This document shows, piece after piece, positions 46,103 to 52,793 of a DNA stretch of 64,000 bases. This stretch comes from Escherichia coli (GTDB lineage: Bacteria; Pseudomonadota; Gammaproteobacteria; Enterobacterales; Enterobacteriaceae). Numbering within the stretch: the stretch's first letter is position 1; the number at the start of each line of letters is the position of its first letter. The stretch lies in assembly GCF_048403405.1 (NCBI RefSeq), contig NZ_CP183129.1. One strand, 5' to 3'. Under the pieces are notes generated by a model. It made no database searches. It saw only the letters and a program-made list of their open reading frames with translations, and was not told the origin of the DNA. A program made the position numbers and the translations under genes.

Positions 46103-46144
46103 TGAACTGCACCCCAAATGTTGGACATAATCTGACATCTGAAG

Positions 46145-46675
46145 GTGCAGTTTATGAAACATTCATTTGAAGTAAAAATTGCCGCTGTAAATCATTACCT
46201 GGCCGGTCATGCAGGCATCATTTCTACGGCAAAACTCTTTCAACTTTCTCACACCAGCCTCTCACACTGGATTAATCTTTTTCTTCTTCACGGTCCTCGG
46301 GCACTGGATTGCAGACACAGGCGTAGCTATTCTCCTGAAGATAAACTTTGCGTGGTTCTTTATGCTCTCGGGCATTCTGAGTCTCTACCCCGGGTAGCTG
46401 CCCGGTTTAACATTCCCAGCCACAACACGGTTAAAAACTGGATAAAAGGCTACCGCAAATCTGGTAATGAGGCCTTTATCAGGCGCAGGAAGGAGAAAAG
46501 CATGACCCGTTCTGATGATACCCATGAAAACGAAGCAAACATGACGCCGGAAGAGATGAAGAATGAGCTGCGTTATCTTCGCGCAGAAAATGCATATCTG
46601 AAAGCCATGCAGGAGCATCTCCTGGAAAAAAAGCGCCAGGAGCTGGAGAAAAAACGAAAGTCATCCGGAGCCTGA
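46145..46675 (+). CDS. IS transposase OrfA (HTH)
   Basis: 176 aa; helix-turn-helix N-terminus and leucine-zipper-like C-terminus typical of IS3-family OrfA. Confidence 0.85.
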   Translation: MQFMKHSFEVKIAAVNHYLAGHAGIISTAKLFQLSHTSLSHWINLFLLHGPRALDCRHRRSYSPEDKLCVVLYALGHSESLPRVAARFNIPSHNTVKNWIKGYRKSGNEAFIRRRKEKSMTRSDDTHENEANMTPEEMKNELRYLRAENAYLKAMQEHLLEKKRQELEKKRKSSGA

Positions 46676-46779
46676 GGTGCGGACACTGCCAGTCTGACCT
46701 GTTAAAGGCTGCAGGGCTGGCCAGAAGCACGCTGTACTACCAGCTGTCACTGCAGAAGGCTAAGGACAAGTATGCTGAT

Positions 46780-47502
46780 GTGAAACAGCTCATAGCCTCC
46801 ATCTTCCATGAACACCGGGGATGTTATGGGTACCGGCGGATCCATTGTGAGCTTCAGAAAAGAGGTCTTAAGTTCAGTGGCAAAACGGTGCGAAAACTGA
46901 TGCAACAGCTCGGCCTGAAGTCTCCTGTGCGCCTGAAGAAATACCGGTCTTACCGGGGAAATATGGGACTCGCTGCAGAAAATATCCTTCAGCGACAGTT
47001 CAAAGCGGAAGCTCCCTGTGAGAAATGGGTGACAGATATCACCGAATTCAGGGCTGGCGGACAAAAACTGTACCTGTCCCCGATACTTGATTTGTTTAAC
47101 GGGGAAATCGTGGCGTGGGAAACTGCCTGCAGGCCTACAGAGGAGCTGGTGAAGCGCATGTTAAATAAGGGGCTGGAAAGCCTTGCAGAAGGAGAAAAAC
47201 CGCTGCTCCACAGTGATCAAGGGTGGCATTACCGGATAAAAAGTTATCAGTCTGCCCTGGCAGACAAAGGGTTAGTGCAGAGCATGTCGCGCAAGGGCAA
47301 CTGCCTTGATAATGCGGTAATGGAGAATTTCTTTGGTCACCTGAAAGAAGAAATGTACTATCGCCGGGACTACAGAAGTGTAGAAGAGCTGGAAAATGCC
47401 GTTAACGAATACATAACTTACTGGAATCAAAAAAGAATAAAACTCAGTCTTGGGGGACTCAGTCCGGTAGAATACCGGACTGAGCATCAAAAAGCCGGTT
47501 AA
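46780..47502 (+). CDS. IS transposase OrfB (DDE/integrase core), made as an OrfAB fusion by -1 frameshift
   Basis: 240 aa as listed; frame is -1 relative to orfA and presumably open back to the slippery heptamer; rve-type catalytic core. Confidence 0.85.
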   Translation: MKQLIASIFHEHRGCYGYRRIHCELQKRGLKFSGKTVRKLMQQLGLKSPVRLKKYRSYRGNMGLAAENILQRQFKAEAPCEKWVTDITEFRAGGQKLYLSPILDLFNGEIVAWETACRPTEELVKRMLNKGLESLAEGEKPLLHSDQGWHYRIKSYQSALADKGLVQSMSRKGNCLDNAVMENFFGHLKEEMYYRRDYRSVEELENAVNEYITYWNQKRIKLSLGGLSPVEYRTEHQKAG

Positions 47503-47664
47503 CTGAAACTGTCCAGGTTTTGGGGTTCAGTTCATACACGCCGCATCCGGCATAAACAAAGCGCACGTTGTTACAATTTACGTTTTAAACCTACGTGCGC
47601 AATAACCCAATAACCCAGACTACGCCAACAGAAGTGCGTTTCTGGGGCGTGTTTTGCCAGGAGT

Positions 47665-47877
47665 TTAATCTCGCGTTTCGATGGTGAGCGGGCGAACCAG
47701 ACCATAAATCACCATTGGCGTTCCGAGGCCAATCAGCAATAAACGGTAGATAATTGAAGGTTTAATACGCTTAATCTGTACTGTGGATGTTTTACTGGAG
47801 TTATTCATTAGTTTGGCCAATAGTTCCATTATTTCAATATGATAAGCCTCGCACTGTTGAAAAGCCAGGCTGCACAT
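47665..47877 (-). CDS. Hypothetical small protein, possibly spurious
   Basis: 70-aa ORF with hydrophobic C-terminal half between IS copy A and yiaW; no recognisable family. Confidence 0.2.
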   Translation of the reverse strand: MCSLAFQQCEAYHIEIMELLAKLMNNSSKTSTVQIKRIKPSIIYRLLLIGLGTPMVIYGLVRPLTIETRD

Positions 47878-47990
47878 TTCAGAAAGTATATAAAAAACAA
47901 TATGTCGTTATATAAATAAGGAAATTGCACCGCATTATGGTATTTCATAATATGCGTTAATTGTTCTTTTCTATATTCTCTGAGGGAAAT

Positions 47991-48314
47991 ATGTTCCTGG
48001 ATTATTTTGCATTGGGAGTGCTTATTTTTGTATTTCTGGTGATATTCTATGGGATTATTATTTTACATGATGTTCCCTACCTGATTGCTAAAAAACGTAA
48101 TCATCCACATGCCGACGCCATTCATGTTGCTGGTTGGGTAAGTCTTTTTACGTTACATGTTATCTGGCCATTTTTGTGGATTTGGGCCACGCTTTACCGC
48201 CCGGAGCGGGGATGGGGAATGCAAAACCATGACTCCTCCGTTGTGCAACTACAACAGCGTATTGCCGGGCTGGAGAAACAGCTCGCCGACATCAAATCCT
48301 CTTCTGCCGAGTAA
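47991..48314 (+). CDS. yiaW: Small inner-membrane protein (DUF3302-like)
   Basis: Start trimmed to [13 protein letters not shown] (107 aa) with GAGGG RBS; paralogue of yibI. Confidence 0.85.
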
Positions 48315-51291: not shown

Positions 51292-51339
51292 TTCACCGGT
51301 GGATGTCGGTGCGGCTGGCCTACGCTCTCGCACCGACTT

Positions 51340-51361
51340 GTAGGCCTGATAAGACGTGTTA
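51340..51361. repeat. REP half-site interrupted by IS copy B
   Basis: GTAGGCCTGATAAGACGTGTTA pairs with AGCGTCGCATCAGGC at 52798; preceded by a 9-bp-stem hairpin at 51305-51337 after the yiaT stop. Confidence 0.75.
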
Positions 51362-51393
51362 TGAACTGAACCCCAAAACCTGGACAGTTTCAG

Positions 51394-52116
51394 TTAACCG
51401 GCTTTTTGATGCTCAGTCCGGTATTCTACCGGACTGAGTCCCCCAAGACTGAGTTTTATTCTTTTTTGATTCCAGTAAGTTATGTATTCGTTAACGGCAT
51501 TTTCCAGCTCTTCTACACTTCTGTAGTCCCGGCGATAGTACATTTCTTCTTTCAGGTGACCAAAGAAATTCTCCATTACCGCATTATCAAGGCAGTTGCC
51601 CTTGCGCGACATGCTCTGCACTAACCCTTTGTCTGCCAGGGCAGACTGATAACTTTTTATCCGGTAATGCCACCCTTGATCACTGTGGAGCAGCGGTTTT
51701 TCTCCTTCTGCAAGGCTTTCCAGCCCCTTATTTAACATGCGCTTCACCAGCTCCTCTGTAGGCCTGCAGGCAGTTTCCCACGCCACGATTTCCCCGTTAA
51801 ACAAATCAAGTATCGGGGACAGGTACAGTTTTTGTCCGCCAGCCCTGAATTCGGTGATATCTGTCACCCATTTCTCACAGGGAGCTTCCGCTTTGAACTG
51901 TCGCTGAAGGATATTTTCTGCAGCGAGTCCCATATTTCCCCGGTAAGACCGGTATTTCTTCAGGCGCACAGGAGACTTCAGGCCGAGCTGTTGCATCAGT
52001 TTTCGCACCGTTTTGCCACTGAACTTAAGACCTCTTTTCTGAAGCTCACAATGGATCCGCCGGTACCCATAACATCCCCGGTGTTCATGGAAGATGGAGG
52101 CTATGAGCTGTTTCAC
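51394..52116 (-). CDS. IS transposase OrfB, copy B
   Basis: Identical 240-aa product to copy A. Confidence 0.85.
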   Translation of the reverse strand: MKQLIASIFHEHRGCYGYRRIHCELQKRGLKFSGKTVRKLMQQLGLKSPVRLKKYRSYRGNMGLAAENILQRQFKAEAPCEKWVTDITEFRAGGQKLYLSPILDLFNGEIVAWETACRPTEELVKRMLNKGLESLAEGEKPLLHSDQGWHYRIKSYQSALADKGLVQSMSRKGNCLDNAVMENFFGHLKEEMYYRRDYRSVEELENAVNEYITYWNQKRIKLSLGGLSPVEYRTEHQKAG

Positions 52117-52220
52117 ATCAGCATACTTGTCCTTAGCCTTCTGCAGTGACAGCTGGTAGTACAGCGTGCTTCTGGCCAGCCCTGCAGCCTTTAACAGGTC
52201 AGACTGGCAGTGTCCGCACC

Positions 52221-52751
52221 TCAGGCTCCGGATGACTTTCGTTTTTTCTCCAGCTCCTGGCGCTTTTTTTCCAGGAGATGCTCCTGCATGGCTTTCAGAT
52301 ATGCATTTTCTGCGCGAAGATAACGCAGCTCATTCTTCATCTCTTCCGGCGTCATGTTTGCTTCGTTTTCATGGGTATCATCAGAACGGGTCATGCTTTT
52401 CTCCTTCCTGCGCCTGATAAAGGCCTCATTACCAGATTTGCGGTAGCCTTTTATCCAGTTTTTAACCGTGTTGTGGCTGGGAATGTTAAACCGGGCAGCT
52501 ACCCGGGGTAGAGACTCAGAATGCCCGAGAGCATAAAGAACCACGCAAAGTTTATCTTCAGGAGAATAGCTACGCCTGTGTCTGCAATCCAGTGCCCGAG
52601 GACCGTGAAGAAGAAAAAGATTAATCCAGTGTGAGAGGCTGGTGTGAGAAAGTTGAAAGAGTTTTGCCGTAGAAATGATGCCTGCATGACCGGCCAGGTA
52701 ATGATTTACAGCGGCAATTTTTACTTCAAATGAATGTTTCATAAACTGCAC
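52221..52751 (-). CDS. IS transposase OrfA, copy B
   Basis: Identical 176-aa product to copy A. Confidence 0.85.
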   Translation of the reverse strand: MQFMKHSFEVKIAAVNHYLAGHAGIISTAKLFQLSHTSLSHWINLFLLHGPRALDCRHRRSYSPEDKLCVVLYALGHSESLPRVAARFNIPSHNTVKNWIKGYRKSGNEAFIRRRKEKSMTRSDDTHENEANMTPEEMKNELRYLRAENAYLKAMQEHLLEKKRQELEKKRKSSGA

Positions 52752-52793
52752 CTTCAGATGTCAGATTATGTCCAACATTTGGGGTGCAGTTCA

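Follow-up and report, generated by a model that had tools for sequence, protein, structure and literature searches.

Two Inverted IS1397 Copies in REP Hairpins Bracket yiaWVUT in a Clone of Escherichia coli

Introduction

This report concerns a stretch of Escherichia coli DNA of 64,000 nucleotides (assembly GCF_048403405.1, contig NZ_CP183129.1; hereafter the window), in which the genes yiaW, yiaV, yiaU and yiaT, lying between aldB and a gene for a GH127 glycoside hydrolase, are bracketed by two copies of an insertion sequence (IS) of the IS1397 type in opposite orientations, each within a repetitive extragenic palindromic (REP) sequence, or palindromic unit (PU). This arrangement is very probably the product of two separate transpositions of IS1397 into PU loops in one clone, that of copy A preceding that of copy B, which together created an inverted repeat able to flip the yiaW-yiaT segment; the window itself holds the un-flipped state.

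Elements of the IS3 family are about 1.2-1.55 kb long, have imperfect inverted repeats of the form 5'-TG...CA-3' and generate target site duplications of 3-4 bp. They contain overlapping orfA and orfB reading frames, the latter in the -1 frame, with a frameshift heptamer of the A_AAA_AAG type, a helix-turn-helix (HTH) in OrfA and a DDE domain in OrfB.

The Locus and the Two Insertion Copies

A repeat search over positions 44000-55000 returned a single inverted repeat pair, 46101-47536 and 51360-52795, of 1436 nt and with 100% complementarity. When the ends were read and the sequences compared by script, copy A at 46103..47534 (plus strand) proved to be the exact reverse complement of copy B at 51362..52793 (minus strand) over 1432 bp, with 100% identity, and the extra 2 nt on each side of the 1436-nt repeat represent chance extension (ac...ta versus ta...gt). 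The end motif TGAACTGNACCCCAAA is present exactly at all four IS ends, with 0.06 chance matches expected, and its sole further match, which has two mismatches, lies within yibH. The terminal inverted repeats begin with TGAACTG(C/A)ACCCCAAA, close as TG...CA and agree at 21 of 25 positions.

Each copy is flanked by a duplication of its own. Copy A is enclosed by TAC at 46100..46102 on its left, which corresponds to a single TAC at the empty site found with 100% identity in strain CFSAN061763, and by TAC at 47535..47537 on its right, established by end reading and by script. Copy B is enclosed by GTTA at 51358..51361, which corresponds to a single GTTA at the empty site in strains GN02461 and TUM14771, and by GTTA at 52794..52797, established by end reading and by comparison with relatives. 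The original prediction, made from the sequence of the window, had described two identical inverted 1432-bp copies with the same ends, each with its own target duplication (TAC/TAC and GTTA/GTTA); the copies are confirmed to the base by the script comparison, and the duplications were read at all four flanks and checked against exact empty sites.

The segment between the copies (47535..51361, 3827 bp) contains yiaW, encoding a DUF3302 protein (47991..48314, plus strand; annotation mapped with an offset of 37602), followed by yiaV for an HlyD-family protein (48320..49456, plus strand), yiaU for a LysR-family regulator (49453..50427, minus strand) and yiaT for a MipA/OmpV-family protein (50551..51291, plus strand), the last three being given by both the open reading frame list and annotation. 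The right end of copy A lies 456 bp upstream of the annotated ATG of yiaW (47991), in agreement with the distance of about 450 bp noted earlier.

Identity of the Element

In copy A, orfA occupies 46154..46675 on the plus strand and encodes 173 aa with HTH domains. The A_AAA_AAG heptamer for a programmed -1 frameshift is located at 46627..46633 on the same strand, in the orfA frame (codons AAA AAG), and the -1 frame runs on from this heptamer into orfB to yield the OrfAB transposase of 449 aa (46154..47502, plus strand). Copy B encodes the same transposase at 51394-52742 on the minus strand, with the same frameshift site at 52263-52269. The 449-aa OrfAB is identical to an NCBI protein record whose cluster name is 'IS3-like element IS1397 family transposase', and the predicted orfA/orfB pair with its frameshift site is accordingly borne out. 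The RNA fold downstream of the heptamer is no better than that of shuffled sequences (z -0.86), and a stimulatory element was not found there.

The family assignment is consistent across several sources. OrfAB scores 388 bits against NCBIfam NF033516 (IS3 family transposase), for which the cutoff is 160, and Pfam domains comprise HTH_28 twice, HTH_21 (E 6e-17), rve (E 5e-21) and rve_2 (1e-20). The rve/DDE region covers OrfAB residues 286-443, in which D295, D355 and E391 are candidate catalytic residues. In six RefSeq genomes, the identical protein is labeled by the Prokaryotic Genome Annotation Pipeline (PGAP) as 'IS3-like element IS1397 family transposase, programmed frameshift'. The length, the ends, the orfA/orfB frameshift, the HTH and rve/DDE domains and the target duplications of 3 and 4 bp are all those of the IS3 family, and the earlier call of an IS1397-like element therefore stands on the NF033516 score, the Pfam domains and the PGAP name. 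The length of the IS1397 type element (accession X92970), which we take to be 1432 bp, is the same.

The comparison set for this and the following sections consisted of 5,426 complete E. coli genomes. A full-length copy of the element is present in 1,707 of these, where PGAP annotates it as IS1397 with programmed frameshift, whereas only seven records show 99.9-100% identity to the variant in the window. Among ten other copies that were sampled, nine are exactly 1432 bp long and the tenth (CP088860) measures 1431 bp. The element is IS1397 or effectively the same, a naming that would follow from the RefSeq annotation of an identical transposase. It shares with IS1397 the length of 1432 bp, the TG...CA ends, orfA/orfB with A_AAA_AAG, insertion into PU loops and duplications of 3-4 bp; it differs in being a clone-specific sequence variant, with full identity confined to seven RefSeq genomes and no more than 99.9% in the rest, and its sites, aldB-yiaW and yiaT-GH127, are private to the clone.

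A perfect palindrome with an 11-bp stem, CTCAGTCCGGTAGAATACCGGACTGAG, is also present in the 3' end of orfB in both copies (47458-47484 and 51412-51438), where it covers the codons of the conserved LSPVEYRTE motif.

REP Hairpins as Targets

IS1397 inserts specifically into the REP/PU sequences of E. coli, and this specificity is decided by the transposase (PMC1525189 and PMC3184786, citing Clement 1999 and Wilde 2001, 2003); IS1397 is also attributed to Bachellier 1997 (as cited in PMC1525189). Both sites in the window conform to this pattern. The left arm of the PU at site A, GTAGGCCGGATAAGGCG, lies at 46083..46099 and its right arm, CGCCGCATCCGGC, at 47539..47551, and the corresponding arms at site B are GTAGGCCTGATAAGACG at 51340..51356 and CGTCGCATCAGGC at 52800..52812, all four having been delimited from the folds of the reconstructed sites. 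Deleting the IS together with one copy of the duplication yields GTAGGCCGGATAAGGCG-TACA-CGCCGCATCCGGC for the empty site A and GCCTGATAAGACGT-GTTAA-GCGTCGCATCAGGC for the empty site B. Both reconstructed sites fold into a REP hairpin whose loop holds the duplicated bases, with an energy of -12.3 kcal/mol (z -3.9) for site A and of -10.7 kcal/mol (z -5.4) for site B. Perfect matches to the PU tail arm occur twice in the 64-kb window, and both are the sites occupied by the IS.

Ten more IS1397 copies at unrelated loci, eight of them taken from a search with the IS alone and the others from strain 3059 and CP088860, were compared with the pair in the window. All ten sit in a REP loop, in either orientation relative to the PU. 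Their duplications are of 4 bp in eight cases and of 3 bp in one, and one copy is without an exact match. The folds of both sites in the window and the position of these ten copies substantiate the proposal that each copy interrupts a palindromic unit, as is specific to IS1397.

Two of the sampled copies deserve separate mention. The copy beside mak in strain EFF60 occupies a REP loop, but its flanks do not match (gtca | IS | gcaa), which could reflect another event of recombination between IS copies. The djlA-rluA intergenic copy in CP088860.1 encodes the same 449-aa protein and is likewise located in a REP loop, of which the 3 bp GCC are duplicated; with 1431 bp between its ends, this copy is one base short, which may be a homopolymer sequencing error.

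Other elements also target REP/PU sequences, including ISKpn1 of Klebsiella and IS621 of E. coli, a member of the IS110 family (PMC1525189, PMC3184786). ISKpn1 prefers PUs of the Klebsiella type. IS621, besides belonging to another family, enters beyond the inverted repeat, on the REP's 3' side, in contrast to the copies described here, which enter the loop.

Occupancy in Public Genomes and Order of Insertion

Junction queries composed of the IS with 500 bp on either side were searched against the comparison set. The aldB-IS junction of copy A is present in six of the 5,426 genomes and the IS-GH127 junction of copy B in four. A 600-bp query for the empty site A finds 3,805 genomes with coverage of at least 80%, CFSAN061763 matching at 100% identity, and the empty site B is covered in 1,255 of the 5,426, with exact matches in TUM14771 and GN02461. 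These last two strains carry copy A only, and their site B is empty exactly as reconstructed. Strains 4621 and TUM1226 carry both copies arranged as in the window, and MS 69-1 and isolate 68 (NZ_OX030728.1) carry the flipped state considered below; the comparison with related genomes that had been proposed thus yielded the empty, A-only, A-plus-B and flipped states. The number of IS1397 places is four in the A-only strains and five in the A-plus-B strains, which fits one added copy.

The window and the six related genomes differ at only three positions over 40000-56034, and these seven sequences therefore belong to one clone. At 46996, TUM14771 differs by a C-to-T change, at which PGAP marks an internal stop in the IS (pseudogene), and copy A in this strain is thus predicted to be inactivated. 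The difference at 47691 is private to MS 69-1. At 49844, within yiaU, the window has C where the six related genomes have T, which makes the window a seventh member of the clone. In addition, strain 3059 carries a 100%-identical IS1397 variant at a private alkA-dgcE REP site, and the variant found in the window appears, from this distribution, to be active. The two copies in the window are recent and still identical.

The separate duplications, the exact empty sites and the two A-only sister genomes show, as had been proposed, two independent simple insertions. Copy A would have been inserted first, into the PU loop of the aldB-yiaW intergenic region, with a 3-bp duplication of TAC; copy B would have followed in the opposite orientation, into the PU loop of the yiaT-GH127 intergenic region, with a 4-bp duplication of GTTA. 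Precise excision, which the reverse order from A plus B to A only would require, is rare among IS3 elements. Both insertions presumably proceeded by copy-out/paste-in transposition, by analogy with IS911, IS3 and IS2.

Two identical inverted IS copies that bracket a block of genes are the usual layout of a composite transposon, in which both copies and the genes between them would have moved yiaWVUT to this place as a unit. However, a composite transposon has a single duplication at the outer ends of the IS-cargo-IS structure and a cargo foreign to the site, whereas here the outer flanks are TAC and GTTA, with no duplication shared between them and each copy having its own; moreover, IS-free genomes also hold yiaWVUT between aldB and the GH127 gene and have an intact REP at each of the two points, and an A-only intermediate exists. 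With unmatched outer flanks, a gene block native to the site and A-only genomes, the composite transposon is excluded and can be given virtually no credence, in accordance with the original prediction that none had been mobilised.

Identical repeats of 1.4 kb are also a classic hard case for assemblers, and either the perfect identity or the second copy itself might in principle stem from a collapsed or duplicated repeat. Against this, four complete assemblies of independent origin (USA, Japan and Spain) place both copies at the same base positions and show proper duplications of 4 bp and 3 bp, and the exactly matching empty sites fit real transposition. On the strength of these four assemblies and the exact empty sites, an assembly artefact was rejected as extremely improbable.

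Inversion of the yiaWVUT Segment

Inversions between inverted copies of elements such as IS1, IS5, IS150 and IS3 are known in E. coli, both from long-term evolution lines and from natural isolates. The window shares the gene order aldB-yiaW-yiaV-yiaU-yiaT-GH127 with IS-free genomes, and its duplications are matched rather than swapped, so that the predicted lack of an inversion holds for the net state of the window; because aldB-yiaW and yiaT-GH127 are contiguous in IS-free genomes, this orientation is the ancestral one. In MS 69-1 and isolate 68, by contrast, the order is aldB - IS(+) - yiaT(-) yiaU(+) yiaV(-) yiaW(-) - IS(-) - GH127, and the duplications are swapped, reading TAC-IS-TAAC ... 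GTA-IS-GTTA. Apart from two single-nucleotide polymorphisms (SNPs) in MS 69-1, the flipped segment of 3827 bp matches window positions 47535-51361 exactly in reverse complement. Swapped duplications together with a reverse-complemented segment are the mark of recombination across the inverted pair, and the suggestion that this pair offers a substrate for inversion is thereby matched by these two assemblies.

Homologous recombination across the perfect 1.4-kb inverted repeat, probably of the RecA type, would therefore have flipped the 3.8-kb yiaW-yiaV-yiaU-yiaT segment in some descendants. The flip disrupts no gene and causes no replichore imbalance, and it would be selectively near-neutral. 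It resembles the IS-mediated inversions of E. coli in that the exchange takes place between inverted identical IS copies and swaps the target site duplications; it differs from them in the very small size of the segment, 3.8 kb with four genes, and in having both breakpoints in intergenic REPs. The three SNPs in 16 kb, none of them shared, do not tell one inversion event from two in MS 69-1 and isolate 68.

Several points weigh against the reading of two sequential insertions with an un-flipped window. Matched duplications exclude only an odd number of inversions, and two successive flips would leave the same picture. Assemblers can mis-orient segments between 1.4-kb inverted repeats, and the orientation depends on long reads; however, two independent assemblies agree on the flip, which argues against an artefact. 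In the donor search for copy B, in which one IS1397 place was listed per genome, copy A is only one candidate donor among about four copies per genome, and gene conversion could likewise keep the two copies identical. Finally, the name IS1397 is the one given by RefSeq annotation.

Possible Effect on Gene Expression

The presence of both isomers among near-identical clinical isolates, and the orientation of the copy A transposase gene, which points towards yiaW, might suggest a functional invertible switch, in which the flip alters how yiaW/yiaV or yiaT are expressed and both isomers are maintained by selection. However, both copies face inward with their right end, so that flipping leaves yiaW behind an IS right end, half a REP and 456 bp of native DNA as before, while an IS right end follows yiaT in both isomers. 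As the IS end beside yiaW is the same in the two isomers, a regulatory switch is unlikely. A consensus scan of copy A revealed no outward promoter-like site at its right end; the only sigma-70-like site that separates the IS from yiaW, at 47814-47843, lies in the native DNA that is retained.

An invertase-type switch relies on a dedicated recombinase that recognizes short inverted sites, and its flipping changes a promoter or a coding sequence. The repeats at this locus are whole IS copies, the context of yiaW and yiaT is equal in both isomers, and there is no site-specific recombinase gene in the locus, where the sole recombinase-type gene is the IS transposase. In addition, only two flipped genomes are known, and these may share one ancestor. 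Selection for both isomers through such a switch is thus a very improbable explanation of the flipped genomes. A related conjecture, that the segment flips back and forth at appreciable frequency in the clinical clone and that its orientation affects the expression of the envelope genes yiaT and yiaW-yiaV as an accidental switch resembling phase variation, seems to us similarly far-fetched; were it true, possible routes would be read-through from the aldB or the GH127 side, or the orientation of transcription relative to replication. The sequence itself supports neither a regulatory role of the flip nor an influence of copy A on yiaW, and no phenotypic effect is indicated.

Significance

A known element behaves here as expected, in what is already known as ordinary IS biology, and no new element or mechanism is involved. 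What the locus provides is a base-resolved natural series in one clone, from an empty REP to one IS1397, then to two inverted IS1397 copies and then to an inverted segment with swapped duplications, and it illustrates how a REP-targeting IS can seed small chromosomal inversions. The arrangement can serve as a lineage marker for the clone, and caution is called for when this region is assembled or compared.

Neighboring Features of the Window

Some further features of the window lie outside the bracketed segment. Downstream of site B, positions 52857-57900 contain the genes for the GH127 glycoside hydrolase, an MFS transporter and an AraC-family regulator, located between yiaT and araD/sgbU-type genes. 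K-12-type genomes are without the contiguous yiaT-REP-GH127 junction, and K-12 derivatives cover 65% of the site B query, in two pieces.

At a distance of 16 kb from yiaW-yiaV, yibI (DUF3302) and yibH (HlyD family), at 31309-32810, form a pair of the same type and in the same order; from the annotation of strain 4621, yibI-yibH and yiaW-yiaV look like paralogous two-gene modules. Between lldP and yibL, positions 19646-25601 carry a 5.2-kb gene for a YadA-like adhesin (trimeric autotransporter) and, adjacent to it, a SadB/YajI lipoprotein gene.

Finally, positions 33268-38756 (loci L002-L006, positions 1-2400) encode an RHS element core protein, with an Imm57 immunity gene adjoining downstream. 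Here the clone mates, near-identical elsewhere in the 16 kb compared, differ by dozens of substitutions and an indel of 12 bp, and such clustered variation suggests recombination or exchange of the toxin tip.

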